This document shows, one piece after another, positions 4,163 to 32,021 of a DNA stretch of 64,000 nt; position 1 is the stretch's first letter, and every line of letters begins with the position of its first letter. The stretch is from Spirochaetaceae bacterium. Lineage in GTDB: Bacteria; Spirochaetota; Spirochaetia; DSM-2461. A model generated the notes under the pieces. The model made no database searches. It saw only the letters and a program-made list of their open reading frames with translations, and had not been told where the DNA came from. Position numbers and translations under genes: made by a program. The stretch covers positions 512,001-576,000 of the forward strand of contig OZ245056.1 of assembly GCA_965224705.1 (NCBI GenBank). The letters run 5' to 3'.

Positions 4163-6663
4163 ATCGCGTCGATCTTTCCGGCTCCTGGGAACTCATCGGT
4201 GACGAACGCAGTATCCGAGTGCCCATTGAGCTTCCCGGCGACAATTACACAGCTTTGGCCAATGCCGGAATAATTCCCGATCCGTATTTCGGACAAAATG
4301 AGCTATCCTGCCAATGGGTTGGACAAAGCGACTGGATTTTCAGGCGCTCCTTTTCATTAGATGCTGATTTTATTGACTCGGGGAATGTCTATCTTCACTG
4401 CGATTCCCTTGATACCTTCGGTACAGTCAAAATCAACGGGAAAACAGCGGGGGAGTCCTGGAACGCGTTCACCCCATTTCGGAAAACGGTTACGGAATTG
4501 CTCTTGCCTGGAGAGAATACGATCGAGGTTTTGATTCGTTCGGCCGAGAATGAGGCCGCCCTCAGAGAAAAACGTCTGGATTATCCCGTGCCTCATAGTC
4601 ATTATCCTGTTCAGTCCCCCCACCGCAACCTTGTGCGAAAAACCCAGTGTCACAGCGGCTGGGATTGGGGCCCCTGCCTGATGGCAAGCGGGCTGTATGG
4701 GGATATTTATCTGCAATCCGTCCCCGGGGTCCGTGTCGATTATTTTCACGGGGAAACTCTAAACCGGGAGGGAAGGTGGTTGGTCAATTCAACTCTGGAA
4801 GTTTTTTGTTATGACCCCGGTGAGAGGCTCCTCGATATTTCCCTATCGGAAGAACCGGACAGGGGGGATGAATTGGGGAAGAACCCTGACCTGAATTTTG
4901 GAATTCCGAAGGTTAGTGAAAAGGTCAATCTAAAAAAAGGTATAAATACACTTTCCTATTCCTTTCCGGTGGAAGATCCCCGGCTGTGGTGGCCGAATGG
5001 TTTTGGCGGGCAGCCTCTGTATGCCCTGAAGATGGAACTGCAGGGTGAAACTTTAATACAGCGAATTGGTTTTCGAACGATTGAAATAAAAGCCGAGTCT
5101 GATGACTCTGGCAAGAGTATGGTGTTTTCTGTAAACCGCCGGGAGATATTCTGCAAGGGGGCGAACTGGATTCCTCTGGATGCCCTGCCCGGCAGGAAAA
5201 ATGATGACCGCCTTGAGGCTCTTCTTTCTGATGCGGTTTCGGCCAACATGAACATGCTCAGGGTATGGGGAGGGGGAAGTTATGAATCCGAGCGGTTTTA
5301 CCAGGCCTGTGATGAAAAGGGGATACTCCTATGGCAGGATTTTATGTTTTCCTGTTCATGTTATCCCGGGCATACTGATTTTTTGACTGAGGTTGAAGAA
5401 GAAGTCCGGCACCAGGTGAAGAGGCTGAAATTCCATCCCTCCCTGGCTCTCTGGTGCGGCAACAACGAATGCCTTGGAGCCCTGACCTGGTTCAAGGAAA
5501 GTCAGCAGAACCGGGATAAGTATCTTGTGGATTATGACCGGCTTTACGAGGGCGTTATCGGGAAGGCTGTGAGGGAAATTGACCCAAACAGGAAATGGTG
5601 GTCCAGTTCACCATCGGGAGGCCCCGCGGATTATTCCGACTGCTGGCACAATGATACCAGGGGGGATATGCATTATTGGAGTGTATGGCACGAAGGAAGG
5701 CCTTTTGAAGCGTACTACGATGTGACACCGCGATTTTGCTCCGAATTCGGCTTTCAGTCATTTCCTTCCATGGACACCCTGTCCTCATTTGTGCCGGCGG
5801 GTCAATACAATCTCACCTCACCGGTGATGGAACACCATCAGCGGCACCCCCGGGGGAACGCGGTGATCATTGAAACTCTTTGCCGCTATTTCCGGTTCCC
5901 GGAAAAGTTTGAACATTTTCTGTATTTAAGCCAGGTTCAGCAGGCATTGGCGATGCAGACCGCAATCGATTACTGGCGCAGCAGCCGTCCAGTCTGTATG
6001 GGAACCCTTTATTGGCAGCTGAATGATGTCTGGCCGGCGGCTTCCTGGTCGTCGGTGGAGTATTCCGGCAGATGGAAGCTGCTCCATTACGTTATAAGGC
6101 GTGCGTATGATCCGGCTGCCATAGCCGTGTTTATAAAGGACGATTTTCTTCAAGTATGGGGATTAAACGATTTGGCCGGATCGATTGGAGGCGAACTGGA
6201 GTTGTCATACATCGATTTCCAGGGACGGCCTGTTTCGGTGGTACAGAAAAATGTTACGCTGAATGCCGAGTCGGCCGTCAGAATGTACACTGCTGAACTG
6301 AGTGGTCTGCCTGTTCAAAAAGATCGGGGATTTTTCCGGGCACGATTTCGCGGCGGTGATATAAAGCGGGAGAGCAGTATTTTTTTGACTCTTCCCAAAG
6401 AATGTTCTATTGAGTTGCCCAATATAAAATTCACGGCGGATGAAGAAAAAGACGGCAGAATAAGAATATCTTTATCGACGGACAAACCCGCATTTTTTGT
6501 GTCCCTTGATTCGGGAAGTATCCGGGGGGTATTTTCGGACAACTGCTTTCCTATGTTTCCGGGAGAGGAAAAAACCGTGGTGTTTACTCCAGGGCAGGGG
6601 GGGTCAATTGAAGAATTTAAATCGGAACTGACGCTGAATCATCTTCGAAAAACGTATAGCTGA
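4159..6663 (+). CDS. GH2 beta-mannosidase
   Basis: WDWGP, KGANWIP, NMLRVWGGG, WCGNNE, SEFGFQS, YWQLND; ATG at 4159 overlaps the upstream stop. Confidence 0.9.
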   Translation: MNRVDLSGSWELIGDERSIRVPIELPGDNYTALANAGIIPDPYFGQNELSCQWVGQSDWIFRRSFSLDADFIDSGNVYLHCDSLDTFGTVKINGKTAGESWNAFTPFRKTVTELLLPGENTIEVLIRSAENEAALREKRLDYPVPHSHYPVQSPHRNLVRKTQCHSGWDWGPCLMASGLYGDIYLQSVPGVRVDYFHGETLNREGRWLVNSTLEVFCYDPGERLLDISLSEEPDRGDELGKNPDLNFGIPKVSEKVNLKKGINTLSYSFPVEDPRLWWPNGFGGQPLYALKMELQGETLIQRIGFRTIEIKAESDDSGKSMVFSVNRREIFCKGANWIPLDALPGRKNDDRLEALLSDAVSANMNMLRVWGGGSYESERFYQACDEKGILLWQDFMFSCSCYPGHTDFLTEVEEEVRHQVKRLKFHPSLALWCGNNECLGALTWFKESQQNRDKYLVDYDRLYEGVIGKAVREIDPNRKWWSSSPSGGPADYSDCWHNDTRGDMHYWSVWHEGRPFEAYYDVTPRFCSEFGFQSFPSMDTLSSFVPAGQYNLTSPVMEHHQRHPRGNAVIIETLCRYFRFPEKFEHFLYLSQVQQALAMQTAIDYWRSSRPVCMGTLYWQLNDVWPAASWSSVEYSGRWKLLHYVIRRAYDPAAIAVFIKDDFLQVWGLNDLAGSIGGELELSYIDFQGRPVSVVQKNVTLNAESAVRMYTAELSGLPVQKDRGFFRARFRGGDIKRESSIFLTLPKECSIELPNIKFTADEEKDGRIRISLSTDKPAFFVSLDSGSIRGVFSDNCFPMFPGEEKTVVFTPGQGGSIEEFKSELTLNHLRKTYS

Positions 6664-6840
6664 ATCGCTATTGAGTTAGCCGAAAGAATACATGCATGGG
6701 GGTAGGTGTAGAGGGCAATCGCACCTAAAAAGACATCAAGCAGGTGAATTGCCAGGTAACAATCCGTTTTTTATGGAACGCATGATTTCAAGAACCCTAC
6801 AGACCGGTAGAATATGTCAACTGGAACTTCTTCCCAGTGC

Positions 6841-6926
6841 GCTTGTGGATTGCCTTTCACAGCCACTACAATCCGGGCTATAGCGATCGCTATTGGAGCC
6901 TTCGCTTCGTGTTGAGGACCAATTAG
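6841..6926 (+). pseudogene. Orphan DGR variable-region (VR) remnant
   Basis: Aligns codon-for-codon with the 3' end of 7026..7982 and shares the ending TTGAGGACCAATTAG. Confidence 0.75.
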
Positions 6927-7025
6927 TTTTATGGTATCTTGAAGAACGAGAAGGCCCTCACTCCGATTTGACATTCTCCCCTTAAGGACGCTAAAGTCAG
7001 TAATCCAGACAAACAGGAGAAAAAA

Positions 7026-7982
7026 ACGAAAAAACTGAAAAGCCGCCCCAAAAAATACATTCCCATAGCCATCCTGCTATTCCTGCCCCTGCTCAGTGCC
7101 GCCAGCAGCCGCCCGCTTAGCGCGCATGCCCGCCTCCGCCAGGCCCCGCCCGCCGTACCTGCCCACAGTCCGGCGGAAAACGCTGACATAACACTGACCT
7201 CGTGGGATGACTGGGATGACTGGGATGACTATGACTGGGAAGCAGTGGGAATGGTCTATGTGGAAGGCGGCAGTTTCCAGATGGGCAGTACCGACAGTGA
7301 TGCTGATTCGGATGAAAGCCCGGTGCACAGCGTAAGGGTGGATTCGTTTTACATGGCTGAAACGGAAGTGACATTTGATCAGTATGACGCATACTGCGAT
7401 GACCAGAGAATCAGTAAGCCCGACGATGAGGGCTGGGGCCGGGGAAGCCGTCCGGTGATCTATGTGAGTTGGTATGACGCAGTGAAGTACTGCAACTGGC
7501 TGAGTGAGCAAGCTGGCCTACCGAAGGCGTATAGCATAAGCGGCACAAGTGTAAACTGGAATCAGAATGCCGAAGGCTATCGTTTGCCAACGGAAGCCGA
7601 GTGGGAGTACGCGGCGCGGGGGGGAAAGCATTCCCGGGGATATAAATATGCCGGGAGTAACAATGTTGGCGAAGTTGGGTGGTATTCTGGAAATTCCGGA
7701 GGGAAAACCCATCCGGTTAAGGGTAAGAAGGCCAATGAGCTGGGGCTGTATGACATGAGCGGGAATGTGTGGGAATGGTGCTGGGATTGGTATGATTCGG
7801 ATTACTATTCCATTTCACCTGGAGGCAATCTCACAGGGCCGTCAAGCGGGTCCTACCGCGTGATTCGCGGCGGCAGTTGGGGCCTCAATCCGGAGGGCTT
7901 GCGGGTTGCCGCTCGCGGCGGCAACAGTCCGGGCTACAGCAACCTCCTTTTGTGCTTTCGCCCCGTTTTGAGGACCAATTAG
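7026..7982 (+). CDS. FGE-sulfatase/CLec-domain protein, DGR target 1 (start ACG where the paralog has ATG; alternative start 7245)
   Basis: RLPTEAEWEYAARGG, GLYDMSGNVWEW, RVIRGGSW; N-terminus near-identical to 12920; TGGGATGAC x3 insert. Confidence 0.85.
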   Translation, partial: TKKLKSRPKKYIPIAILLFLPLLSAASSRPLSAHARLRQAPPAVPAHSPAENADITLTSWDDWDDWDDYDWEAVGMVYVEGGSFQMGSTDSDADSDESPVHSVRVDSFYMAETEVTFDQYDAYCDDQRISKPDDEGWGRGSRPVIYVSWYDAVKYCNWLSEQAGLPKAYSISGTSVNWNQNAEGYRLPTEAEWEYAARGGKHSRGYKYAGSNNVGEVGWYSGNSGGKTHPVKGKKANELGLYDMSGNVWEWCWDWYDSDYYSISPGGNLTGPSSGSYRVIRGGSWGLNPEGLRVAARGGNSPGYSNLLLCFRPVLRTN

Positions 7983-8140
7983 TTTTTGGTTTTTTACCTT
8001 TTTACCTTATTCGCATCCTGTCCCCATAACAGGGGCAAACAGATTTGTTCCGCTTTGTTTTGGTAGTATTGCGTCGTCAATGTGAAGAATTGGAGCGGAA
8101 CTTTTTTTTCAAATACCCGAAAGTAAAGAACAAGATATCT

Positions 8141-8275
8141 ATGCCATTTGAAATAATAACGATACATTACAATCCTGTTACAGACTCTTTTCATTCGGAT
8201 GAATTGAACAAATTCTGTCTGAATAAAAGGATTATACACAGGGAAACGGCGTTTTTTACAACGGAAAGTCAGTCT
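8141..8275 (+). pseudogene. Truncated N-terminus of DGR-associated HRDC accessory protein
   Basis: MPFEIITIHYNPVTDSFHSDELNKFCLNKRII resembles the ELNKFL..HRI motif of the 14185 gene and sits in the same position after a VR gene. Confidence 0.55.
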
Positions 8276-8347
8276 CTTGCCGCTGTCTATGGCCTTAGAG
8301 CCGGTTTCGGCATCAAAGGAAGTGGTCTTTTCGCCTAAAAGCAGCAT

Positions 8348-8615
8348 TAAACCGCAGAGATCACAGAGCTGCGCAGAGAGATATGAAATAAAAAGATTGA
8401 TCAATAATTACCTTGAACACTCTGCGCTCTCTGCGTCCTCTGCGGTTAAAAAACAAGGAATAAGGTATAAACCGCAGAGATCGCGGAGCGGCGCAGAGAA
8501 ATATGGCATAAGTAAAGATTAGTGAATAATTACCTTGAACTCTCTGCGTCCTCTGCGGTTAAAAACCATGAATAAGGCCTTGAATAATCTCCGTGAACTC
8601 CGTGCCTCCGTGAGA
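8348..8615. repeat. Tandem palindromic AACCGCAGAG...CTCTGCGGTT units
   Basis: Two ~100-bp hairpin units (about 8348-8449 and 8468-8562) with 9-bp periodic arms, plus CTCCGTGAACTCCGTGCCTCCGTG; related copies at 12710-12860, 15539 and 16250. Confidence 0.8.
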
Positions 8616-8639
8616 GAATTTCTGTAAAGTCCAGTCGGA

Positions 8640-10382
8640 TTATTCCTCACAATACAGGGACAAGTCCTTCCCCCTAAACCCAATGCCCAGAACCAACAAT
8701 TCCTTCGGATGCCATTTCTCCCTGACCCCCTCAAGGTATCCCTCCACCGCCTGGGCATAAGCGGCCTGGGCTAAGGTTTCCAATGCGGTATCAGCGGCAC
8801 TGTTTCCCTGCTTGAACTCGAACACAAAAGCCTTCTCGGCCTGAGCGGGATCGCTTCCCTTCCTGACCACCACAATGTCCGAACGGCCTCTCCCGTACTC
8901 CCGGTTACTGTCCACGGCATAGGCCGGACCAAGATAGGCCAGAAGCCCCAGTACAAGACCATGGTAGAAGTTTTCCCGTCTCTCCTCCTCGTCCCATGCG
9001 CTATCGTAATAACTGGCGAGGCCGAAGAGGATTCGCTTCAGGCTGCGTTCAATCAGTTGGGGATTGGCTTCTCTGATGCCGCTGATAAAGTCCGTAAAAT
9101 CCTCGTTGACGGACAGATCCTCCTTCAGCCAGCTCCGCACCACGGTTTCCCAGGCCGTCTCCACTTCTTTGTTGGGTATGGAGAGCCGCCAGCTGGTCCC
9201 CAGTTCTTCCTGCTGCATTTCGGAGGCCTTGAGGTAGCCGCTATGGAGGAGAAAACTCCATACCACATCCGGATCATTTTCTATCTGGGTGTAGGGAATG
9301 TTGGTTAAGAGCGGCTTGCGCACTTCCTCTTTCCGCAAAAGTTTTTCTGTTGTCATTTTAGCATCCCGGCGCTTTAGTTTGATGACGTCCTTGACGAGTC
9401 TGTTGTCGCTGGTGCTTATCCAATGCGGTTTCAGTCCTTCCTCGTGGGAGCTTAAGTAATTGACGATGCTCCAGGGATTGTAGATGACGGTGTCCCCGCC
9501 GAAGATGTATCCGTTGTACCATTCCTTGATTCCGTCCATTTTGTCTTCCAGACCGAAGTATGAGGTCATTTTTTCAAGTTCCAGCTCGGTAAATCCGAAG
9601 CAGTCCTTCATGGCCGGGGAAAGGATGGTGGAGACTCTGGGATTGTTGAAGTCGCTGAAGATGCTCTCCTGGGCGATTTTCAGTATGCCGATAAGCACAG
9701 CCTGTTTCAGGTGGGGGTTGTCCTTGAAGGTTTGCACCATGAAGCTGCGGATGAAGGCAATCATCTGATCGTAGTATTTGTCCACATGGGCCGAGTGCAG
9801 GGGCGTGTCGTACTCGTCCAGAAGGATGTAGGGCGGTTTGCCGTAGGCGCGATGGAGCCAGGCGGAGAGGGATTCAATGGATTGGGCACAGTCCTGATCC
9901 GTGCCGTTTCTGTTCAATATTCTGGAAAATAACTTTTCATCGGCTTCGTGCAGCATTCCGCAGCCATGCAGATATTCATGCCGCTGGTATTCTGCGGAAA
10001 GCATTTTCCTGATAATTTCCATGCACTCATTGAATGAAGCACCCTTGGCATCCTTAAAGCTCAAATGAATAACCGGATACTGCCCCATGAACTCGGCACA
10101 GCGCGGATGGGAGGCGATTGCAAGATCCTCAAAAAGGTAGGCGTTGGGAATGGTGAGTGATGAGTGGGAATCCTGGTGTTGGTGGGGTAGCGGGAGAACT
10201 TCCAGGAAGTAGCGGATCATGCTCAGGTTCAAGGTTTTGCCGAAGCGGCGGGGGCGGGTGATCAGATGGACTTCGTCGGAGTTTTCAATAAGATAACTGA
10301 CAAGATGGGTTTTATCGACAAAATAACAGTTTTCGTCGATGAATTTCTTAAAATCCGATATGCCCAGCCGCAACGTTTTCAT
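8640..10382 (-). CDS. AAA-ATPase-like + PD-(D/E)XK nuclease (PDDEXK_9-type) protein
   Basis: YFVDKT, TRPRRFGKT, LLDEYDTP, YNPWS, SNREYGRGRSD, FEFK. Confidence 0.9.
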   Translation of the reverse strand: MKTLRLGISDFKKFIDENCYFVDKTHLVSYLIENSDEVHLITRPRRFGKTLNLSMIRYFLEVLPLPHQHQDSHSSLTIPNAYLFEDLAIASHPRCAEFMGQYPVIHLSFKDAKGASFNECMEIIRKMLSAEYQRHEYLHGCGMLHEADEKLFSRILNRNGTDQDCAQSIESLSAWLHRAYGKPPYILLDEYDTPLHSAHVDKYYDQMIAFIRSFMVQTFKDNPHLKQAVLIGILKIAQESIFSDFNNPRVSTILSPAMKDCFGFTELELEKMTSYFGLEDKMDGIKEWYNGYIFGGDTVIYNPWSIVNYLSSHEEGLKPHWISTSDNRLVKDVIKLKRRDAKMTTEKLLRKEEVRKPLLTNIPYTQIENDPDVVWSFLLHSGYLKASEMQQEELGTSWRLSIPNKEVETAWETVVRSWLKEDLSVNEDFTDFISGIREANPQLIERSLKRILFGLASYYDSAWDEEERRENFYHGLVLGLLAYLGPAYAVDSNREYGRGRSDIVVVRKGSDPAQAEKAFVFEFKQGNSAADTALETLAQAAYAQAVEGYLEGVREKWHPKELLVLGIGFRGKDLSLYCEE

Positions 10383-10557
10383 GATTTTGAATTATAGCGG
10401 AATGCTATGGGGAATGGAAGCAATAACGGAAATTCGACATAAAAATGATCAATAACCCCTGCTCACTGAAAAAGGGGTGGAACGTCATGACTTAGTATGC
10501 ATTTGTTTTTACTGACTTAAACCCCGAAAGATTCACAATCATCAATCAGCAATCAAA

Positions 10558-12300
10558 TTATTCCTCACAATACAGGGACAAGTCCTTCCCCCTAAACCCA
10601 ATCCCCAGAACCAACAATTCCTTCGGATGCCATTTCTCCCTGACCCCGTCAAGGTATCCCTCCACCGCCTGGGCATAAGCGGTCTGGGCCAAGGCTTCCA
10701 GCGAGGTATCAGCAGAGGTGTTTCCCTGCTTAAACTCGAACACAAAAGCCTCTTCGGCCTGAGCGGGATCGCTTCCCTTCCTGACCACCACAATGTCCGA
10801 ACGGCCTCTCCCATACTCCCGGTTACTGTCCACGGCATAGGCCGGACCAAGATAGGCCAGAAGACCAAGTACAAGACCATGGTAGAAGTTTTCCCGTCTC
10901 TCCTCCTCGTCCCATGCGCTATCGTAATAACTGGCCAGGCCGAACAGAATTCGCTTCAGGCCGCGTTCAATCAGCCTGGGATTGGCTTCTCTGATGCCGC
11001 TGACAAAGTCCGTAAAATCCTCGTTGACGGAGAGATCCTCCTTCAGCCAACTTCGCACCACGGTCTCCCAGGCCGTCTCCACTTCTTTGTTGGGTATGGA
11101 GAGTCTCCAGCTAGTTCCCAGTTCTTCCTGGTGCATTTCGGAGGCCTTGAGGTAGCCGCTGTGGAGAAGAAAACTCCATACCACATCTGGGTCATCTTCT
11201 ATCTGGGTATAGGGAATGTTGGTTAAGAGGGACTTGCGTACTTCCTCTTTCCGCAGGAGTTTTTCTGTTGTCATCTTCGCATCTCGGCGCTTTAATTTGA
11301 TGACTTCCTTGACGAGTCTGTTGTCGCTGGTGCTTATCCAATGCGGTTTCAGTCCTTCCTCGTGGGAGCTTAAGTAATTGACGATGCTCCAGGGATTGTA
11401 GATGACGGTGTCCCCGCCGAAGATGTATCCGTTATACCATTCCTTGATTCCGTCCATTTTGTCTTCCAGACCGAAGTATGCGGCCATTTTTTCAACTTCC
11501 TCCTCGGTAAATCCGAAGCAGTCCTTCATGGCCGGGGAAAGGATGGTGGAGACTCTGGGATTGTTGAAGTCGCTGAAGATGCTCTCCTGGGCGATTTTCA
11601 GTATGCCGATGAGCACAGCCTGCTTCAGGTGGGGATTGTCCTTGAAGGTTTGCACCATGAAGCTGCGAATGAAGGCGATCATCTGATCGTAATACCTGTC
11701 AACATGGGCCGAATGCAGGGGTGTGTCGTACTCGTCCAGAAGGATGTATGGAGGTTTGCCGTAGGCGCGATGGAGCCAGGCGGAGAGGTATTCAATGGAT
11801 TGGGCACAGTCCTGATCCGTGCCGTTTCTGTTCAATATTCTGGAAAATAACTTTTCATCGGCTTCGTGCAGCATTCCGCAGCCATGCAGATACCCATGCC
11901 GCTGGTATTCCGCGGAAAGCATTTTCCTGATAATTTCCATGCACTCATTGAATGAAGCACCCTTGGCATCCTTAAAGCTCAAATGAATAACCGGATACTG
12001 CCCCATGAACTCGGCACAGCGCGGATGGGAGGCGATTGCAAGATCCTCAAAAAGGTAGGCGTTGGGAATGGTGAGTGATGAGTGGGAATCCTGGTGTTGG
12101 CGGGGTGGCGGGAGAGCTTCCAGGAAGCAGCGGATCATGCTTAAGTTTAAGGTTTTGCCGAAGCGGCGGGGGCGGGTGATAAGGTGCACCTTGCTTGGGT
12201 GGTCGATGAGATAGCCGATAAGAGAGGTTTTATCAACGAAATAGCAGTTCTCGTCGATGAATTCCTTGAAATCGGAGATTCCCAGTTCCAGATTTTTCAT
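10558..12300 (-). CDS. AAA-ATPase-like + PD-(D/E)XK nuclease protein, tandem paralog
   Basis: Same motifs; near-identical to 8640..10382 except the N-terminal ~40 aa. Confidence 0.9.
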   Translation of the reverse strand: MKNLELGISDFKEFIDENCYFVDKTSLIGYLIDHPSKVHLITRPRRFGKTLNLSMIRCFLEALPPPRQHQDSHSSLTIPNAYLFEDLAIASHPRCAEFMGQYPVIHLSFKDAKGASFNECMEIIRKMLSAEYQRHGYLHGCGMLHEADEKLFSRILNRNGTDQDCAQSIEYLSAWLHRAYGKPPYILLDEYDTPLHSAHVDRYYDQMIAFIRSFMVQTFKDNPHLKQAVLIGILKIAQESIFSDFNNPRVSTILSPAMKDCFGFTEEEVEKMAAYFGLEDKMDGIKEWYNGYIFGGDTVIYNPWSIVNYLSSHEEGLKPHWISTSDNRLVKEVIKLKRRDAKMTTEKLLRKEEVRKSLLTNIPYTQIEDDPDVVWSFLLHSGYLKASEMHQEELGTSWRLSIPNKEVETAWETVVRSWLKEDLSVNEDFTDFVSGIREANPRLIERGLKRILFGLASYYDSAWDEEERRENFYHGLVLGLLAYLGPAYAVDSNREYGRGRSDIVVVRKGSDPAQAEEAFVFEFKQGNTSADTSLEALAQTAYAQAVEGYLDGVREKWHPKELLVLGIGFRGKDLSLYCEE

Positions 12301-12364
12301 GACGCTTTTCAATATAGCATGGTTTGGCCGCTTTATCTATACGGGTTTAGAACCGCCGGTTCCT

Positions 12365-12600
12365 TCGCCTGGGTATAAGCGGACTGGGCCAACGTTTCCA
12401 ATGTGGTATCAGCGGCACTGTTTCCCTGCTTGAACTCGAACACAAAAGCCTCTTCGGCCTGAGCGGGATCGCTTCCCTTCCTAACCACCACAATGTCCGA
12501 GCGGCCTCTCCCGTATTCCCGGTTGCTGTCCACGGCATAGACCGAAGAGGATTCGCTTCAGGCCGCGTTCAATCAGCTCAGCACCACGTTTTTCCAGGCC
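12365..12600 (-). pseudogene. Patchwork of AAA/PD-(D/E)XK C-terminal fragments
   Basis: DSNREYGRGRSD...FEFKQG segment plus short deleted pieces of the same gene. Confidence 0.8.
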
Positions 12601-12660
12601 GTCGAGCGGATCCTACCACGTGTTACGCGGCGGCAGTTGGTTCGACAATCCGGAGGGCTT
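12597..12660 (+). pseudogene. Orphan DGR VR 5' fragment
   Basis: GGCCGTCGAGCGGATCCTACCACGTGTTACGCGGCGGCAGTTGGTTCGACAATCCGGAGGGCTT aligns with 7837-7900. Confidence 0.75.
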
Positions 12661-12741
12661 AGCTTATTGTAGAAAAACTAATGGGTTTGTCAATAGGAGA
12701 TTCTACGTTTTTAACCGCAGAGGACGCAGAGGGTTCAAGGT
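12657..12741 (-). repeat. Left copy of ~85-bp inverted repeat carrying a sigma70-like promoter; partner at 16241-16335
   Basis: Reverse complement of the 16241-16335 segment; TTGACA-N16-TACAAT on the minus strand. Confidence 0.8.
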
Positions 12742-12919
12742 AATTATTGACCAATCTTTTTATTCCATATTTCTCTGCGTATCTCTGCGATCTCTGCGGT
12801 TTATACCTTAATTTATGGTTTTTTAACCGCAGAGGACGCTAAAGAGCGCAGAGTGTTCAATTTGACATTCTCCCCTTAAGGACGCTAAAGTCAGTCATCC
12901 AGACAAACAGGAGAAAAAA

Positions 12920-13927
12920 ATGAAAAAACTGAAAAGCCACCCAAAAAAATACATTCCCATAGCCATCCTGCTATTCCTGCCCCTGCTCAGTGCCGCCGAC
13001 AGCCGCCCGCTTAGCGCGAATGCCCGCCTCCGCCAGGCCCCGCCCGCTGTACCTGCCCGCAGTCCGGCGGAAAACGCTGACATAACACTGACCTCGTGGG
13101 AGGAATGGGAAGCGGAGGGAATGGTCTATGTGGAAGGCGGCAGCTTCCAGATGGGTAGTGATGCTGATTCGGATGAAAGCCCGGTGCACAGCGTAAGGGT
13201 GGAGTCGTTTTACATGAGCGAAACGGAAGTGACCCATCGCCAGTACCTGGAGTTTTTGAACGATGCCGGAGTGTCTGCCGCGGGCCGATTGAATGGCAGC
13301 GAGGTGATAGACATGGATGATGAAGATGTGGCCTTTAGCCATAACGGCAAGGAGTTTAGCTTTGCCGCATCGGAGTATGCGGATGACATTGACTGTCCGG
13401 TGATAGAGGTGACGTGGTACGGAGCCGTGGAATACAGCAACTGGCTGAGTGAGCAAGCTGGTCTACCGAAGGCCTATAGCATAAGCGGCACAAGTGTAAA
13501 CTGGAATCAGAATGCCGAAGGCTACCGTTTGCCGACGGAGGCCGAGTGGGAGTACGCGGCGCGTGGAGGGACCCAGTCGAATGGGTATAAGTATGCCGGG
13601 AGTAACAACGTAGACGAAGTAGGATGGTATTGGGATAATTCCGGGTCTAAGACCCATCCGGTTAAGGGTAAGAAGGCCAATGAGCTGGGATTGTATGACA
13701 TGAGCGGGAATGTGTGGGAATGGTGCTGGGACTGGTATGATTCGAATTACTATTCCAGTTCACCTGGGGCCAATCCCACAGGGCCGTCTTCGGGCTCGAC
13801 CCGGGTCCTTCGGGGCGGCAGCTGGTTCAACGGCCCGGGGGGCTTGCGGGTTGCCAGTCGCGGCAACGGCGGCCCTGGCGTCAGCGACATCGATAGCGGG
13901 TTCCGGCTGGCCTTGCCTGCAGATTGA
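12920..13927 (+). CDS. Secreted FGE-sulfatase/CLec-domain protein, DGR target 2
   Basis: Signal-peptide-like N-terminus; FGE motifs; C-terminal RVLRGGSW...GFRLA region rich in NNC/NNT codons; followed by hairpin, HRDC gene and RT. Confidence 0.9.
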   Translation: MKKLKSHPKKYIPIAILLFLPLLSAADSRPLSANARLRQAPPAVPARSPAENADITLTSWEEWEAEGMVYVEGGSFQMGSDADSDESPVHSVRVESFYMSETEVTHRQYLEFLNDAGVSAAGRLNGSEVIDMDDEDVAFSHNGKEFSFAASEYADDIDCPVIEVTWYGAVEYSNWLSEQAGLPKAYSISGTSVNWNQNAEGYRLPTEAEWEYAARGGTQSNGYKYAGSNNVDEVGWYWDNSGSKTHPVKGKKANELGLYDMSGNVWEWCWDWYDSNYYSSSPGANPTGPSSGSTRVLRGGSWFNGPGGLRVASRGNGGPGVSDIDSGFRLALPAD

Positions 13928-13947
13928 AATCGTCCTCCAGCAGGGTA

Positions 13948-13968
13948 CTTGGGGCCGGAGGCCCCAAG
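13948..13968 (+). promoter_or_regulatory. Candidate DGR target-recognition hairpin
   Basis: CTTGGGGCC-GGA-GGCCCCAAG: perfect 9-bp stem with GGA loop, 20 bp after the VR stop. Confidence 0.7.
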
Positions 13969-14099
13969 GTCCAGGGGTTGAGTTTCGGCTGCCGTCCGCT
14001 AAGGAGGGCTGAGGGACGAAGCCCGGAAGGCGGACTGCTGACGAAACGGCAGGGTTAAGGGGAAGTGTTTTCAGAGAAGTTTGGAAGGTTCCGTTAGGG

Positions 14100-14123
14100 T
14101 TTTTTGCCGCTTGCGGCAAAAAA
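14100..14123. terminator. Bidirectional intrinsic terminator-like hairpin
   Basis: TTTTTTGCCG-CTTG-CGGCAAAAAA. Confidence 0.6.
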
Positions 14124-14184
14124 TATTTTTGGATATTCGGGATAATACTTACAGGATTAGCTCCTTTTAAGAAGAGGCGGAGAA

Positions 14185-14644
14185 ATGCTGCATTACAGAC
14201 TATTCAGTGTGCCCGTTAACGCACCTCAGGACGAAATGCGGGAGTTGAATAAATTTCTAAAGCGGCCACCGCATCATGCAGGTGGATAAAACTCTGGCAA
14301 CAGATGGCGGATCCAGCTTCTATGTGTTCTGCATCGCTTACGATGAAAAAAATCCCCAGCATAGTGCGAGTACCAGGAATGCTGTGGATTATAAGGAAGT
14401 TTTGAACGATGAAGATTTTGCTGTGTTCAGCAAGCTGCGGGAGCTGCGGAAGGAATGCGCCGAGCAATTCGGCAGGCCTGTGTATGCTGTGTTCACCAAT
14501 GAACAACTGGCTAAAATGGTCACTGGAAAGGTGTATAAGCCTGCGGATATGCGAAAAATCGACGGCATAGGAGATTCCAAAATGGCCGACTATTCAAAGC
14601 GATTCCTGGATTTTCTCCAGTCCGTATACAGCCTGGAATCATGA
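14185..14644 (+). pseudogene. DGR accessory HRDC-domain protein, +1 frameshift near 14258
   Basis: MLHYRLFSVPV..ELNKFL then frame change to (S)GHRIMQVDK; HRDC motif LRELRKECA..PVYAVFTNEQL..IDGIG; stop overlaps the RT ATG. Confidence 0.8.
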
Positions 14645-15537
14645 AGCGGGCGGGAAATCTCTATTCCCGGATATACTCCTGGGACAATCTCCTTTTGGCC
14701 TTCTACAAGGCCCAGAGAGGCAAAAAAAGAAGGCCGGATATATAGGGCACCTCTAAAAAACACCCATTCCGTTTCTGGCTTGATCTTTACCACTGCTACT
14801 GCGTTGCCAAAATGCTCACGTAGCTTAGGCTACGCTCCGCTTTTGTCGCCTTGTATCAGTGAAAAATCTCTGCGCCAGATTCCGAAAGCGGGTTTTTTAG
14901 AGGTGCCTTACAGTTATATAGAATGCGTCTTACCGAGAACTTGAAGAAACTGCAGGAAGGTCTTATTGGGGAATGTGTGGATGTCGGTCACTACCGCTAT
15001 TTTTTAATCCAGGATCCGAAAGAGCGCACAATCTGCGCGGCACTCTTTCCCGAGCGGGTGCTGCATCATGCCGTAATGAATGTAACCGAGCCGTATTTCG
15101 AAAGGAAAATGATTTTCGATACCTATGCTTGCCGAAGGGACAAAGGAACAGACAAAGCTGTTGAACGAGCCTTTGACTTTACCCGAAAGTCTTTTTGGTT
15201 TCTGAAACTTGATATTCGCAAGTACTTCGATTCCATCAGTCATTCTGTTCTGCTTGAAATCCTGCGCACTGTGTTCAAAGATGGCCAGCTGCTTGACTTG
15301 TTCCAGCAGATAATTGAAACTTACCAGAAGACTCCCGGGAAGGGAGTCCCCATCGGTAATCTTACCAGCCAGTACTTTGCCAATCTGTATCTGTCGGGCT
15401 TTGACCACTTCATAAAGGATACTCTGGGAATCAAGCGCTATGTTCGCTATATGGACGACATGTGCTTGTGGGGAAACAATAAATTGGTCTATGCTATGAT
15501 TCCTGTGAAAGCAGCGATACCTGGAAGCCTTGAATAA
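14641..15537 (+). pseudogene. DGR reverse transcriptase, split by a MITE and truncated after YMDD
   Basis: N-terminus MKRAGNLYSRI..WDNLLLAFYKAQRGK; DPKER; LKLDIRKYFDSI; DGR signature GVPIGNLTSQ; YVRYMDD; sequence diverges ~10 codons later. Confidence 0.9.
14743..14910. mobile_element. 168-bp MITE (family B ends) inside the RT gene
   Basis: TIR TAGGGCACCTCTAAAAAAC / GTTTTTTAGAGGTGCCTTA; removal restores the frame ...RPDIQLYRMRL. Confidence 0.85.
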
Positions 15538-15589
15538 TCTCCGTGAACTCCGTGCCTCTATGAGAGATTTTCTGAAAACTCCAGCCGGA

Positions 15590-16173
15590 TTATGCCTCGC
15601 AATACAGAGACAATTCCTTCCCCCGGAAACCAATCCCCAGAACCAACAATTCCTTCGGATGCCATTTCTCCCTGACTCCCTCAAGGTATCCCCCCACCGC
15701 CTGGGCATAAGCGGCCTGGGCCAGCACTTCCAGTGAAGTATCAGCGGCACTGTTGCCCTGCTTGAACTCGAACACAAAAGCCTCCTCGTCCTGCGCGCTA
15801 TCGTAATAACTGGCCAGGCCGAAGAGGATTCGCTTCAGGCCGCGTTCAATCAGCCTGGGGTTGGCTTCTCTGATGCCACTGACAAAGTCCGTAAAATCCT
15901 TGTTTACTGACAGATCCTCCTTCAGCCAGCTCAGCACCACAGTCTCCCAGGCCGTCTCCACTTCCAGGTTGGGAATGGAGAGCCGCCATGTTATATGCGT
16001 GTGTTCCTGCTGCCTCTCGGAGGCCTTGAGATAACCGCTGTGGAGAAGGAAGCTCCATACCACATCCGGATCATTTTCTATCTGGGTGTAGGGAATGTTG
16101 GTTAAGAGCGGCTTGCGCACTTTCTCTCTTCGCAGGAGTTTTTCCGTTGTGATTTTTGCATCCCGGCGCTTTA
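15590..16173 (-). pseudogene. AAA/PD-(D/E)XK C-terminal fragment with internal deletion
   Basis: Homologous to 8640..9380 but lacks the segment between YYDSA and AFVFEFK. Confidence 0.85.
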
Positions 16174-16350
16174 AAGGGCAATCGCATCTCATTCTATCCC
16201 CAAAAAATAAAAAAGCACTGATTCTGGGGGAGCAATACCCACCTTGAACCCTCTGTGCTCTTTAGCGTCCTCTGCGGTTAAAAACGTAGAATCTCCTATT
16301 GACAAACCCATTAGTTTTTCTACAGTAAGGTAAGCACTTCGGAGGTAGAT

Positions 16351-19113
16351 ATGAAACACTGTCCAACCATAGTCATCATTGCATTGACGGCCCTGCTGAC
16401 CATCTCCTGCACAAGCACTTCAAATGACAGTGCGGCTCAGGCGGATCCCCTGCCAAACATGAACGGCAAGGAAACGTCTTTTGTCAAGGCCATGGGCTTC
16501 TACATGTCCCCAATGGAACACAGCGCTAATATCTGGCCGATGGCATACAGCCCCGATGGAACACAACTGGCCAGCGGCAGTTCCGATGGACTGCTGCGCG
16601 TGTGGTCCGCCCGGTTCGGCCAGCAGGAAATGCAGTTTCAGGGCCATGAAGGCCGGGTTATGGGCCTGGGCTGGAGTCCGGATGGAACCCGGATAGCCTC
16701 CAGCGGTGAGGATGGGCTTGTTATTATATGGCATCTGCAATCGCAGACAAAACTCAAGGAACTTAAGGGCCATAAAGACTGGGCCGCGTCCGCAGCCTGG
16801 AGTCCCGACGCGGCAAAAATCGCCAGCGGGGGCAGGGATGGAAGCGTCCGAATATGGAACGCCGAATCCGGTCAACTGCTTCACACACTTAAGGGCCATG
16901 ACGAATATGTGTGGCCCGTCGCCTGGAACCCCGAGAGCACAGTTCTGGCCAGCGGCGGTAACGATGGTGCCATAAAAATATGGAACGCCGAAACCGGGAG
17001 TCTGGAACGGACACTGGTCCACAAAGCCGCTGCCTGGGTGAACAGCCTGGCCTGGAGTCCCGACGGCAACAGTCTGGCCAGCGGCGGGGACGACAACAAT
17101 GCTGTAATCTGGAACCCGGAAACAGGGGAGAAACGGCAAACTTTGAGCGGCCATAACAAATATGTCCAGTCTGTAGCATACAGCCCCGACGGCAATAGAT
17201 TAGCCACCGGCAGTGCCGATGGCACCCTGCGTATATGGGATGCCGATACCGGCGCAAAGATCCGGGAAATGCAGGCCTCCTCCGATTGGATAAATGCCGT
17301 GGACTGGAAGCCCAGCGGCAGGCAGCTGGCCAGCGCGGGAAAGGACGATGCCATCCATATCTGGGACACCGTCACCGGCAGGCTTGTCAACACCGGAGAA
17401 TACCAGCTTCCCGACGGCACCACGCTGCGTTCGGGCCGTTTTGCGAAAGATCTGAAAGAGACCCCCTACGCCCAGCTCTGGGACATCTATGTCAAACAGG
17501 ACATCCTGCTTGTACCCGAAGGATTTATTGGAGCCGAGGCCGCACTGCTGGCCGCCGGAGACGGCTGGCCCGATGCTCTGAACACCCAGGTACAGGACTA
17601 CTTTGCCCAATGGCTCAAACTGGCCGATCAGACCATGCCCGGCATAGTGCCCCAGCCCGCACTTCCGGAACCCATACTGCTTACCCAGGAGGAATGGGAA
17701 ATCAACAGCGAATTTGAGGACCGTGTCAATGAGGCACAAAGTGCCCGGCAGGCCGAAGTGGACCGTATTCAGGAACAGTACAGACAGGATGTGGAGGCAC
17801 GTAACGCCCAGGTACTGGCACTGCAGCAATTGCAGGGGCGGCGCAGAGCAGTGCTGCCGCAGATGCGGGCGGCCTACATACAAACAGTCATGGATGAATT
17901 TTTAACCCAGGCCACTGCCGCGGACGCCAAGCTGGATCAGACCAGCAATGAACTCTTTATTACCATGCAGGCCCCCGGCAATACCGTACAGGCATTGGGT
18001 ACCTATGTCCTGCAGGGAGCCAGTGCCGCTCTGCGCAAACAGGCCCTTAGCAACCCCTCCAGTCTGGCCGTGGAGATTGAACCCTTTGCCAGAGAAGATG
18101 GAAACTACGGTCTGGACAGTGCCAGTCTTCACTACGAAGGCCAGGAGTACGCCATGACGCTCACCGCTGAGAGTGTCCAAAACTCCGGTTCCCGCACAAT
18201 CACCATAGGTGCCGACGACAGCATAGCCGATTTGGCCCAGACCGCCCTGCAGGATGCCGTTCTGGTGGACCGCAATGCGATGGGCAGTATAACCTACAAG
18301 GACGGCACACAGGCATTCATCGATTTTGATGATGATCTGGGAAGCATAATCCGTCAGATTGCCAAGGTTCCCCAGGACAACAGCAAATGGGCCCTGGTAA
18401 TCGGCGCCGAAACATACAGGAATACCGACAACATCCTCTACGCCCGCCGCAGTGCGGAAGTATTTGCCCAGGCCATACAGGCCTCCCAGGGCATACCCAA
18501 GGGCCATGTCTACACAATCTACGACGAAGAAGCCACCAGCGGGAACCTGAAAACCCAAATACAGACCCTTCTTGAAAAAGGCATAAGCCAGGGTGATACC
18601 GTCTATTTTTACTACAACGGACACGGCATTCCCGCTGCCAATCAGGGCAATGCCCCCTACCTGCTGCCCACCGATATGAGCCCCGATTTTGTAACCAATG
18701 AACCATTCTTCCAGATGCAGAACATCCTGGAACAGTTCCAGAACTCCAAAGCAGGTAAGGTACTGGTCTTTATGGATAGCTGCTTCACCGGCAAGGTGGA
18801 CGGGCTCTCCGTGTTCAAAAATGTCGCCGCCGCCAGCCTGGCACCCCGCAAGGTAAACCTGTCCGAACAGGGCAAGGTGGCCGTAATAGCCGCCGGTACC
18901 AACACCCAGTATTCCAACGCCTACAGCGAAAAGGGCCACCGTCTGTTCACCTATTACCTTGTCCGTGCCATAGCCTCGCCCGATGCGCCCATACGCAGTA
19001 CCAACCAGCTGCACATCGCCGTAAAAAAGGAAGTCAGTGCCGTTTCCCGCCTTATGGGGCCCCTGAAGTATCAGGACCCAACCATACAGGGCAATGGGGA
19101 CTTAAGCCTGTAA
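16351..19113 (+). CDS. Lipoprotein with 7 WD40 repeats and C-terminal caspase (peptidase C14)-like domain
   Basis: Lipobox-like LTISC; GH..WSPDG..LASG..WN repeats; YYNGHG and FMDSCF His/Cys dyad. Confidence 0.85.
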   Translation: MKHCPTIVIIALTALLTISCTSTSNDSAAQADPLPNMNGKETSFVKAMGFYMSPMEHSANIWPMAYSPDGTQLASGSSDGLLRVWSARFGQQEMQFQGHEGRVMGLGWSPDGTRIASSGEDGLVIIWHLQSQTKLKELKGHKDWAASAAWSPDAAKIASGGRDGSVRIWNAESGQLLHTLKGHDEYVWPVAWNPESTVLASGGNDGAIKIWNAETGSLERTLVHKAAAWVNSLAWSPDGNSLASGGDDNNAVIWNPETGEKRQTLSGHNKYVQSVAYSPDGNRLATGSADGTLRIWDADTGAKIREMQASSDWINAVDWKPSGRQLASAGKDDAIHIWDTVTGRLVNTGEYQLPDGTTLRSGRFAKDLKETPYAQLWDIYVKQDILLVPEGFIGAEAALLAAGDGWPDALNTQVQDYFAQWLKLADQTMPGIVPQPALPEPILLTQEEWEINSEFEDRVNEAQSARQAEVDRIQEQYRQDVEARNAQVLALQQLQGRRRAVLPQMRAAYIQTVMDEFLTQATAADAKLDQTSNELFITMQAPGNTVQALGTYVLQGASAALRKQALSNPSSLAVEIEPFAREDGNYGLDSASLHYEGQEYAMTLTAESVQNSGSRTITIGADDSIADLAQTALQDAVLVDRNAMGSITYKDGTQAFIDFDDDLGSIIRQIAKVPQDNSKWALVIGAETYRNTDNILYARRSAEVFAQAIQASQGIPKGHVYTIYDEEATSGNLKTQIQTLLEKGISQGDTVYFYYNGHGIPAANQGNAPYLLPTDMSPDFVTNEPFFQMQNILEQFQNSKAGKVLVFMDSCFTGKVDGLSVFKNVAAASLAPRKVNLSEQGKVAVIAAGTNTQYSNAYSEKGHRLFTYYLVRAIASPDAPIRSTNQLHIAVKKEVSAVSRLMGPLKYQDPTIQGNGDLSL

Positions 19114-28915: not shown

Positions 28916-30954
28916 GTTTCAGTAATCATGTAATTGGTGTATGATGCTGTAAGTTTCATCGCCAAAGAAGTCAAAAAATCTAAATGTGTTTCAGTAATCA
29001 TGTAATTGGTGTATGATGCTGTAAGCTTGATCACGGCGGCAAAAAGAAAGCTGATGGCAACGTTTCAGTAATCATGTAATTGGTGTATGATGCTGTAAGT
29101 CTGAATTCTTTTGCGTAGTACCGGGGTAACCTGTCAAGTTAACTGTCCACTTTTTTCATGAAACTCATGATGGCCTGTCTTTCAAGCCGTCAAATGAATC
29201 CCTATGGCCTCATTGGCCGATCGTCCACCCAGTATCCGCCGTGGGTAGTTGTTGACCCAATCCTGTATCTCCCTGATCTCCTTCTTGCTGTAGCACCCTA
29301 TATCACTACCTTTAGGTATGAATCGCCGTACCACGCCATTGGCATTTTCATTGCTTCCCCGCTCCCACGATGAGTATGGGTGCGCGTCGTAAATAGTTGA
29401 TCTCTTGCCCCGGGTTAGGCAGGAGCGTTCCATCTTCTGGCTGTCCATAAATTCACTGCCGTTGTCGCATGTGATTGACTTAAACACCTTCCGAAACTGC
29501 CGACTGCCCAGTTTTTTCTCTAACTTATCCAACGTTTTTACCAGGCTATTTTATGTTCCGTATCGCTCAAGGAGAGTCATCAGAGTTTGTTTGCCCTTGC
29601 CTTCAGCTCCGACAATGCTATCTATTTCCCAATGACCAAATTCTTCCCGTTTTTCAATATAATCCGGTCGGGTTGAAATACTCTTCATGGCTGACTTTGC
29701 TCTGTTGTGCCTCTTATAGCCTTTTGAGCCCTTCTTATGCCTTCTTTTGCCCCGGAGCAGGTACTTCCTGGCATCCCCCAGCAGACCTTCATGAATATAC
29801 CGGTAGAGGGTTCTTGTGCTGATTCTTGTGTCCGTTGGCCATGAGAGCTTCTTATAGTGCATGATGACCGCGTCAGGGCTGTATTTCTTTGCAAGGAGCT
29901 TTCTGATTTCCTTGACAAGTTTGTAATCGGCTCCAGGCTTCAATTCGGGCCCCTTTGCTTCAAGCTCCCTACGAGCCTTCCCCTGGGCAATATCTGCGCT
30001 ATAGGTCTGATATTCAGATAAGTCACTATTGCGAAGCCTGACGGCCCCTCGGTTGAGTTCTCTTCGTATGCTTCTTTCACAGCGATCCAGGATGCTCGCC
30101 ATCTGTTTGATTCTTATCCTGTTTTTCCCTTTTTTGCGAATCATTCTTTCCAGAATAAGCCGTTCTTCCCAGTTGAAGTGTTTCCCCCTTCTACTGCTCG
30201 TGTTATTGTACTCTTGCCCCATATTAACTCCTGTTTTGTTTGTTTTAAGTAGTATACATGAGTTTCATGGGGCTTTTTTACCCTCCTTATTGCGGACAGT
30301 TAATGTTACAATTCACCCTACACACGTTTCAGTAATCATGTAATTGGTGTATGATGCTGTAAGTTGATGGCGGCGGCAAAAAGAAAGCCGACGGCAATGT
30401 TTCAGTAATCATGTAATTGGTGTATGATGCTGTAAGGCAGACCCCCAGGACCAGAACCCCGCCTGGAAATACGTTTCAGTAATCATGTAATTGGTGTATG
30501 ATGCTGTAAGTCAAGAAGGAAATAATGAAGGGGTTCTATTATCAGTTTCAGTAATCATGTAATTGGTGTATGATGCTGTAAGCTCAATGCTCTATGAGAT
30601 TATTGCTCACACGGTCTAGTTTCAGTAATCATGTAATTGGTGTATGATGCTGTAAGTTCAGACAATCTTCAAATTACGTTGAAGGGGATATCGTTTCAGT
30701 AATCATGTAATTGGTGTATGATGCTGTAAGCTTTAAAGGGGGGACATTGACTTAATTTGCCATTTTTGCGTTTCAGTAATCATGTAATTGGTGTATGATG
30801 CTGTAAGGATACCGGAGGGGGATAATGAAGTGCTGGTCAGTAGTTTCAGTAATCATGTAATTGGTGTATGATGCTGTAAGAGATATGCGGGGCAGGTCAG
30901 TTCCAGGAAAGTTTACGTTTCAGTAATCATGTAATTGGTGTATGATGCTGTAAG
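28916..30954 (+). CRISPR. Type II-B CRISPR array: 12 identical 38-bp repeats GTTTCAGTAATCATGTAATTGGTGTATGATGCTGTAAG, 11 spacers (34-39 bp; third split by IS30)
   Basis: Repeats start at 28916, 28988, 29062, 30326, 30399, 30473, 30545, 30619, 30693, 30770, 30843, 30917. Confidence 0.98.
29125..30317 (-). mobile_element. IS30-family element with interrupted transposase, inserted in spacer 3
   Basis: GHWEIDSIVG, ITCDNGSEF, PYSSWERGSNENANG; imperfect TIR GGTAACCTGTCAAGTTAACTGTCC / GGTGAATTGTAACATTAACTGTCC; stop at 29551. Confidence 0.9.
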
Positions 30955-30994
30955 CCCGCCGCAACTCTTTTTACAGAAAAAGGTTGCGGCGGGA
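30955..30994 (+). terminator. Hairpin after the last repeat, probable pre-crRNA terminator
   Basis: CCCGCCGCAAC...GTTGCGGCGGG stem. Confidence 0.65.
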
Positions 30995-31073
30995 CTTGCC
31001 TCTGATTTTATCGAAAAGCTGATATTTACGTAAAATAGTTGACTTTTTGCGAAAAAAAGATTATTTTTGAGAA

Positions 31074-31156
31074 ACCAATTACGTGATTCTGTAATCACCC
31101 AAAAGTATTTTGATCGGCACCTCTGCCAGGCTCTGCCTGGCACGTCTGTGTTTTAT
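31074..31156 (+). ncRNA. tracrRNA (type II-B)
   Basis: Anti-repeat ACCAATTACGTGATTCTGTAA versus repeat reverse complement ACCAATTACATGATTACTGAAAC; upstream TTGACT-N17-TATTTT; tail AAAAGTATTTTGA..CGG..ACCTCTG..CACGTCTG resembles Francisella novicida tracrRNA as recalled. Confidence 0.85.
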
Positions 31157-31728
31157 TCCCTGTCATTACAGCGGTTAAGGTATTCACAATTCGTACACTG
31201 ATTGATTGAAGCGGGAGAATCCGGTTTAATTCCTTTTCTTACCATGGTTTGAATCTCTCTAATACTGCTAAGTACATCATTTTTCATACTCTGTGTAAAC
31301 ACTATTTTATGTAATGATTTTTTGCCCTCCGCCAGAAAACCATAGGGACAATTCTTGCGGAAAACCTCTTCCGCCATCAAACCATAGGCGGCCAGCTGCA
31401 GAATTCCTCCCTTTTTTCGGTAAGTTGAAGCCAGCTTGAACTCCACAGGATACACCTGCTCCTCTGTTTCCACAAGCATATCGGCAATGCCGTGGAGATT
31501 GAATCTTTTGGAAGTCAGATGGTAATCAAAGTAAACCTTCCCCTGCTCCAGGCCAAAGCGGGATAGATTTCTGCGCTGCCATAGTTTTATTTCATCCTGA
31601 TGAAACCTCTCTCCCTGATTCACCCATATCGGATAGACCGGAGTAAAGGATGTCAGCTCCATGTAGTAGACAATTCTGGGGCAGTAATGCCATTGGCGGA
31701 TATAATTGGCGGGAATGCTAGATAACAC
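31153..31728 (-). CDS. cas4: CRISPR-associated Cas4
   Basis: QWHYCPR, GIAD, VEFK, QLAAY, C-terminal CxxCxYxxxC. Confidence 0.92.
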   Translation of the reverse strand: MLSSIPANYIRQWHYCPRIVYYMELTSFTPVYPIWVNQGERFHQDEIKLWQRRNLSRFGLEQGKVYFDYHLTSKRFNLHGIADMLVETEEQVYPVEFKLASTYRKKGGILQLAAYGLMAEEVFRKNCPYGFLAEGKKSLHKIVFTQSMKNDVLSSIREIQTMVRKGIKPDSPASINQCTNCEYLNRCNDRE

Positions 31729-32017
31729 AGTTCTCCTTCCAGTCCTCGAAATCCTTCTTCTTATGCCCAATCAAATAGCTGAAGCCGCGGCCGTTAAAAT
31801 TCGTCCGGGTAATCAGGGTTTTATCCTCTTTTTTGACCAGGTGACTGATGAAACGGCGTATTCCATTGAGTTCCGCCTGTGTCAGATATCCCCAGAACAC
31901 CGATTTCTGCATGGGTTTAAGCCCATTTTTCGCCAGTTCATTGTAAACCTTCTTCCGTATCTTGTTATCTTCTATATCGTAGCAGACAAGGTATTCCTGT
32001 CTGAGAATCAATCCCAT
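31718..32017 (-). CDS. cas2: CRISPR-associated Cas2
   Basis: LVCYDIED..R, QKSVF. Confidence 0.95.
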   Translation of the reverse strand: MGLILRQEYLVCYDIEDNKIRKKVYNELAKNGLKPMQKSVFWGYLTQAELNGIRRFISHLVKKEDKTLITRTNFNGRGFSYLIGHKKKDFEDWKENCVI

Positions 32018-32021
32018 ACCA

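Follow-up and report, generated by a model that had tools for sequence, protein, structure and literature searches.

Remnants of two HRDC-class diversity-generating retroelements with probably frozen C-type lectin targets in a Spirochaetaceae genome

Introduction

In diversity-generating retroelements (DGRs) the reverse transcription of a template RNA misincorporates nucleotides at adenines, and the resulting cDNA replaces a variable repeat (VR) in a target gene. We analysed a stretch of 64,000 nucleotides from a Spirochaetaceae bacterium (C1:512001-576000 of genome G000, where C1 is a single contig of 3,005,944 nt; hereafter the window, with positions counted from its first letter) that very probably holds the remnants of two DGRs of the HRDC class, in which the template repeats (TRs) are missing, the enzymes are broken or absent, and the C-type lectin (CLec) targets likely remain frozen in the variant that was written last. 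An initial annotation, made from the letters of the window, had described decayed HRDC-type DGRs here, and that description is supported by the HRDC domain, the placement of the reverse transcriptase (RT) in the DGR clade, the pattern of VR differences and the damage to the RT and HRDC genes.

Several published systems bear on this locus, and for each of them our statements refer to the portions of the paper that are cited. Wu et al. (2018, PMC5758913) count an HRDC accessory in 14 of 372 DGRs, about half of these with avd, and describe remote targets as common in the HRDC class, with up to seven of them. Nimkulrat et al. (2016, PMC4891356) report Treponema denticola isolates that have no RT or no TR and retain leftover targets, and one isolate that still has a target whose own DGR type has been lost. 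Dore et al. (2024, PMC10907252) describe degenerate loci in which repeats resembling MITEs (miniature transposable elements with inverted repeats) replace the RT or the TR, as well as intact and broken alleles within one population (Thiohalocapsa); in the cited portion of Roux et al. (2021, PMC8144416) remote targets are not surveyed. Leftover targets and MITE-broken DGRs are therefore already published (PMC4891356, PMC10907252). Literature searches, which did not extend to supplements, found no publication on the DGRs of this organism.

Judged against those portions of PMC5758913 and PMC4891356, the locus resembles the T. denticola DGR and its target TvpA (architecture C) in being spirochaetal and chromosomal, with FGE-type CLec targets, an HRDC gene that overlaps the RT start, remote targets, and targets left over after partial loss of the core, some of them from another type of DGR. 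It differs in gene order, since in T. denticola TR and RT flank the accessory gene whereas the second cassette of the window would have run target-HRDC-RT-TR, in having two HRDC lineages in tandem with both cassettes non-functional, and in that its intact target has, by eye, no lipobox cysteine. With Thiohalocapsa sp. PB-PSB1, as portrayed in the cited part of PMC10907252, it shares several DGR classes per genome, shuffling of target domains, and MITE-like repeats that interrupt or replace RT or TR. Thiohalocapsa, however, has one complete locus per class and some targets in trans, whereas no complete locus was found in G000, and its targets are conflict-system sensors, whereas those of the window are short and likely exported. 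The RT family, the position of the VR at the 3′ end of the target and the GC-rich hairpin predicted behind VR2 recall the DGR of Bordetella phage BPP-1, which, unlike the window locus, is phage-borne and active and has an Avd accessory and a single target.

Results

The second cassette: a broken reverse transcriptase and a frameshifted HRDC gene

The RT with GNLTSQ and YMDD motifs that had been reported after the second target gene is present (14641-15487, forward strand; PF00078), as a pseudogene that is interrupted at codon 33-34 and breaks off within a few codons of YMDD. The interruption is a MITE-like repeat with terminal inverted repeats (14743-14908; a net 168 nt, adding stop codons), of which the genome holds nine near-full copies. 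Compared with the 336-aa RT of G012, a relative in the same genus, about 110 C-terminal residues are missing, and the two are 67-68% identical. In a tree of 18 rows, of which the window row fills 42% of the columns, the window RT and nine other DGR-type RTs form a clade with support 100/100, most members of which have a template beside them; eight group II-type RTs fall outside, and the window RT is sister to that of G012 (99/98). Its best match in the PDB is 8ub7 (E 3e-28; the next, 2e-11), which we take to be the BPP-1 DGR RT.

The accessory gene (14185-14644, forward; PF00570) carries a +1 frameshift near 14260, judged against the intact gene of G012; the same frameshift occurs in a paralog at C1:222167, and contigs from public runs that cover the site show no gap. 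A downstream frame of 122 aa (14276-14644) retains the HRDC domain and overlaps the RT start. The intact orthologous cassette of G012 runs target, HRDC, RT, and then a TR that overlaps the RT stop codon, and the G012 VRs differ from their own TR almost only at adenines. Cassette 2 would have had this same order, target-HRDC-RT-TR, and because the TR overlaps the RT stop in G012, its template was likely lost together with the 3′ end of the RT. Where both would be expected, the window has repeat and AAA-ATPase debris (15488-16174, reverse strand, from the repeat map).

Target genes and variable repeats

The two FGE-sulfatase/CLec genes of the initial annotation are both found. Target gene 2 (12920-13927, forward; PF03781, E 2e-60) is intact and encodes 335 aa, with a hydrophobic N-terminus that by eye is a candidate signal peptide; its best solved relative is T. 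denticola TvpA (2y3c, E 6e-36), and the homology reaches the C-terminus. Target gene 1 (7026-7982, forward; PF03781, E 8e-59) has the frame and the family assigned to it, but the codon at 7026-7028, where the start is expected, is ACG and not ATG; the rest of the open frame is intact, and the gene is likely a pseudogene. Going by homology, each protein would carry its VR at the C-terminus within a CLec fold (VR1, 7843-7982; VR2, 13788-13927; both forward, and neither with a cognate template found in the genome), and rewriting would, as in established DGR biology, have changed the tip with which a probably secreted protein binds its ligand. The near-identical scaffold claimed for the two genes exists at the 5′ end (96% identity over 251 nt) and not in the gapped, divergent middle, the proteins being 70% identical.

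All four of the VR-like sequences claimed earlier could be located, and the three codon strings quoted from them are in the sequence. Beside VR1 and VR2 there is VR0 (6819-6926, forward), an isolated 3′ fragment of a target gene with 74% identity to VR1 over 97 nt and an identical final 15 nt, but with no gene body upstream and no hairpin downstream; and VRf (12597-12660, forward), a 64-nt 5′ fragment of a VR1-type repeat (86% identity to VR1) fused to AAA-ATPase debris. Behind VR2 lies a GC-rich 9-bp hairpin with a GGA loop (13948-13968, forward; predicted in both the minimum free energy and the centroid structure, z -1.76), likely a target-recognition element; the same loop is found behind the targets of TR-A, a template elsewhere in the genome. 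Folding gave no stable GC-rich hairpin downstream of VR1 or VR0.

Differences between the VRs were compared with the adenines of TR-A, which served as an independent, non-cognate mask. They fall preferentially on template-A columns in four of the six pairs: VR1/VR2 (22/32 template-A columns against 19/85 others, p 5e-6), VR0/VR2 (19/28 against 19/60, p 0.0015), VR1/VR0 (16/28 against 15/60, p 0.004) and VR1/VRf (5/14 against 3/41, p 0.02). VR0/VRf (p 0.06) and VRf/VR2 (p 0.27) show no significant enrichment, so the adenine-mutagenesis pattern proposed for these repeats stands for four pairs and not for two. By codon position (1/2/3) the differences are 15/11/5 for VR1/VR0 and 15/12/14 for VR1/VR2; the bias towards positions 1 and 2 that had been noted is thus clear in the first pair and weaker in the second. 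In 333 nt of coding sequence outside the VR the counts are 7/8/31, mainly third positions.

Absence of a cognate template

BLAST and a scan with adenines as wildcards found no template in the window, in agreement with the initial annotation. Over all 3,005,944 nt and both strands, the best ungapped wildcard matches had 28/140 (VR1) and 30/140 (VR2) non-A mismatches, and a scan for AAY-rich frames returned 20 candidates, three of which are templates: TR-A (C1:2210367), TR-B (C1:1539362) and TR-C (C1:1005800). The genome-wide search that had been suggested for a TR differing only at adenines, with BLAST and a sequence pattern used beside these two scans, therefore brings up three templates, none cognate to VR1 or VR2. 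Since neither a cognate template nor an intact RT frame was found, the frame being broken by an insertion with stops and by 3′ truncation, we regard the locus as a DGR remnant and not as an active DGR.

The first cassette and the debris between the two

Behind target gene 1 lies a 65-codon frame (8141-8338, forward) whose homology stops near 8266 and which corresponds to the first ~42 codons of a 149-aa HRDC+Avd-type accessory protein. It matches two proteins with PF00570 (P0121, at 74%, and P0122) and itself has no Pfam match and no HRDC domain left. An HRDC-type accessory after each target, as had been claimed, is therefore found with its domain for the second target, where it overlaps the RT start, and as a stub recognised by homology for the first; both are damaged. 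Relatives of the stub sit in target-(TR)-HRDC-avd-RT cassettes: among 19 loci with this family, several have the order target-HRDC-avd-RT-TR and three have target-TR-spacer-HRDC-avd-RT.

The latter order with a hairpin, target-hairpin-TR-spacer-HRDC-avd-RT, would also suit cassette 1, where 8009-8105 (forward) resembles the 3′ end of post-TR spacers and is likely the 3′ remnant of a DGR RNA spacer. A descriptor of this element (stem, YGGTA, loop, GAAG, stem) matches at 8061; the window has 2 such matches in all and the genome 23. It recovers four of five training loci and two of 15 others, one of these (L049) between the HRDC gene and a repeat that takes the place of the TR but is not AAY-rich, and the other (L017) on the strand opposite the RT. 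MAFFT misaligned the window sequence with the post-TR spacers, and a DNA search with 8005-8145 in 38 genomes of the family gave two weak, short matches. Hairpin and template 1 were likely deleted at 8008/8009, and everything after HRDC codon 42 would also have been lost; target 1 is likely dead. We considered and dropped a scenario in which VR and TR recombined through their identical ends and template 1 was lost, because contigs from other runs break exactly at 8009 without extending through the shared end.

The debris between the cassettes (8331-12603, reverse, from the repeat map) consists of genome-wide repeats and AAA-ATPase genes: two AAA-ATPase/PD-(D/E)XK genes (8640-10382 and 10558-12312, reverse; PF09820, PF08011) and fragments of a third. 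Genes of this type, which in the window cover 8640-12312 and 15527-16174, number about 45 near-full copies genome-wide and often stand in tandem and next to DGR remnants; MITE-like repeats reach up to about 100 near-full copies.

Timing of the damage and a possible live allele

Parts of the window were found in seven public runs from two studies, one of which may be the source sample, and contigs from four of them (X1, X2, X5 and X7) were compared with the window. A contig from X5 crosses 14878-15551 with no differences, and the RT junctions are therefore not assembly artefacts; X5 contigs likewise show no differences over 13733-13944, which includes an unbroken VR2. Contigs from X1, X2 and X7, representing both studies, join 14739 directly to 14909 and so hold the RT without its insertion. 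Because three other runs lack the insertion, the decay appears recent and strain-specific.

These same contigs leave room for a rather different explanation, namely that the population is polymorphic and that an intact allele, with the uninterrupted RT followed by a TR, still diversifies the targets in cis. We consider this a real possibility, though one clearly less probable than general decay. Contigs from X1 and X7 end at 15483, exactly where RT homology ends, a weak hint that some other sequence continues there; upstream of 8009, from where they match the window, they carry 139 and 87 other letters, and contigs from X7 and X2 diverge after 8268. Three of the four listed changes inside VRs (7912, 7935 and 13863) fall on template-A columns, although such variants may stem from paralogs. 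Sibling assemblies also contain full-length 149-aa HRDC proteins and full-length Avd of the TR-A cassette type, and coexistence of live and dead alleles has been published for Thiohalocapsa (PMC10907252, in the portion cited). Set against this, a search of proteins 103-2000 aa long found no near-identical full-length RT (the hit ranked next is 66% identical), and the 90% cluster of the window RT has one member. In addition, the frameshift of the second HRDC gene looks shared among siblings, because six of ten members of its cluster (114 aa or more) start at an internal methionine, and one member, P0140, continues into the repeat by which the paralog is also cut short.

Service in trans and other DGR remnants of the genome

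The initial annotation had left it between frozen targets and targets served in trans, which here would call for the DGR at C1:2.21 Mb or for some other template of the genome. DGRs of this class commonly have remote targets (PMC5758913, as cited above), as does G012, the genome has three templates, and VR2 retains its hairpin. Nevertheless, TR-A differs from VR1 and VR2 at 18/82 and 21/82 non-A positions and TR-B at 21/82 and 23/82, compared with 2/82 and 5/82 between TR-A and its own neighbours, and TR-C is of a different class, with its own target as the sole BLAST match; VR1, moreover, has no hairpin. Nor was the second intact DGR RT that had been suggested as a check found: of five RT loci in the genome, three are group II-like (two of them placed in the tree, with group II intron-type RTs), one is the window RT, and the last, that of the TR-A cassette (C1:2211596), is interrupted by a 163-nt repeat with an in-frame stop. 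Because no template fits and the only other DGR RT found is interrupted, we reject service in trans as very unlikely for the assembled genome and take the targets to be probably frozen.

That TR-A cassette is a third DGR remnant (C1:2202573-2212760), with two targets that combine a caspase-like domain (named by eye) with CLec, then TR-A, HRDC, avd and RT. Its HRDC gene has a 395-nt insertion and no N-terminus, its avd is intact (PF22296), and a repeat truncates TR-A at the 3′ end. The fourth, of another VR class (C1:1005660-1009400, reverse), has a target, an avd gene with an insertion sequence, and TR-C, which differs from its VR at 24 A and 7 other positions; no RT was matched there, and the N-terminal part of its target is common to a CLec target at C1:220423. 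The latter belongs to a mosaic paralog (C1:220423-222646) that joins a VR1-type 3′ end to an HRDC copy of the cassette-2 type (96% identical to the cassette-2 gene), followed by the first eight RT codons, where a repeat cuts it off. Other ends of the VR2 type occur at C1:244283, 1268081-1268185 and 1687029-1687982. The two DGR lineages that had been proposed for the window are supported, but as a scheme for the genome they are too tidy, as it holds remnants of at least four cassettes with shuffled modules, the mosaic paralog being an example; no complete DGR was found in the assembled genome. Separately, TR-B (C1:1539230-1539362, reverse) is unmutated and AAC-rich, is followed by a target-type end and a hairpin, has no RT nearby, and looks like a TR/VR recombinant.

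Finally, the idea that the VR-like stretches are ordinary diverged ends of paralogs and the RT that of a group II intron or a retron, which would draw on a group II intron RT model being the best NCBIfam match and on the two VR pairs without significant adenine bias, has next to no standing: that model scores 81.6 bits against a cut-off of 300 (retron, 48 against 235), the tree separates the window RT from group II-type RTs at 100/100 (retrons being compared by score and not in the tree), an Rfam scan of 6500-16500 found no intron or retron RNA and three chance miRNA matches, upstream coding divergence is biased to third positions and that of the VRs is not, and the G012 ortholog has a verified TR/VR system.

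Large target sets in related genomes

Matches to PF03781 number 11 in G000, 29 in G012, 20 in G001, 17 in G009 and 4 in G007, the last three being further genomes that we compared. G012 has an intact HRDC-RT-TR cassette (L016:9169-10740) with a single template, to which 14 of 22 VR stretches correspond at four or fewer non-A mismatches in 96, four of them at none, and a further three depart from it through short indels close to AAC codons. The 22 were taken from 24 matches, the TR itself and one short match being left out. In G001 and G009 there are only RT fragments, and a pattern search found no template; yet two of eight G009 stretches match the G012 TR at every non-A site and one has three mismatches. 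The stretches in G012 and G009 are kin and few, and we claim no statistics for them. G009 is a different species from G012, and the sequences suggest that the two recently shared a DGR that G009 then lost. A single template with at least 14 targets is more striking than the window locus itself and amounts to twice the maximum of seven remote targets given in the cited part of PMC5758913, though later surveys may report more.

Host and neighbouring genes

G000 encodes three FlaA proteins, a spirochaete marker, and the FlaA family occurs in none of 14 control genomes. Four of the seven runs with parts of the window are labelled mollusc metagenome, and the spirochaete likely lives in molluscs. 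Elsewhere in the window, 16351-19113 encodes a WD40-repeat protein that begins like a lipoprotein, and 39127-43878 a 1583-aa protein with thirteen 123-nt repeats. A type II-B-like CRISPR-Cas system (28916-37788, reverse) comprises a 1609-aa Cas9 (Csx12 domain), Cas1, Cas4 and an array of twelve 38-nt repeats in two parts, between which lies a 1.26-kb stretch carrying a 223-aa open reading frame of no Pfam family; two near-duplicate spacers flank the split, and no spacer matches elsewhere in the genome. A type III restriction-modification-like defence cluster (44774-56319) contains, one after another, an SNF2 helicase, DUF4391, an N6/N4 methyltransferase, a Schlafen/AlbA-HATPase protein and a ResIII endonuclease.

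Discussion

Some of our results weigh against reading the locus as two frozen DGR remnants. The original templates were not recovered, no TR in the genome differing from VR1 or VR2 essentially only at adenines, and the assembly, though one contig, is 95% complete by markers, so that an unassembled plasmid or phage would lie outside the sequence examined. VR0 and VR1 differ at 15 of 60 non-A columns, more than a single template explains. The spacer descriptor was written after the window sequence had been seen, and a covariance model built from five post-TR spacers missed 8009-8105 in searches of the window (three chance matches) and the genome. The comparison of runs rests on contigs and not raw reads, with 40 of 1204 difference rows listed.

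We nevertheless favour decay. The damage likely came from abundant MITE-like repeats together with deletions among the AAA-ATPase genes that recur in the genome. Some of it, at least, is recent, given that the RT of sibling populations has no insertion. Target 2, intact and with its hairpin, would be open to rewriting once more should a cognate RT and TR come back.

The locus alone adds little, and its value is as a dated example. In three of the four target-rich genomes of the genus only broken RTs are found. One may speculate, although we think it rather improbable, that the genus builds large repertoires of exported binders written by DGRs and then repeatedly shuts the machinery off, a recurring MITE-driven freeze that locks selected binders in. 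If true, DGR gain, burst and MITE-driven freeze would form a cycle of host adaptation, of which the window is a snapshot at the freezing step. Broken and unbroken RT alleles occur in one species, an intact cassette in a sister species, and at least four decayed cassettes in G000; with these three states, the genus offers a natural series in which to ask whether selection favours shutting a DGR off after a good binder has arisen, or whether shut-off reflects mere drift in a repeat-ridden, host-associated genome.

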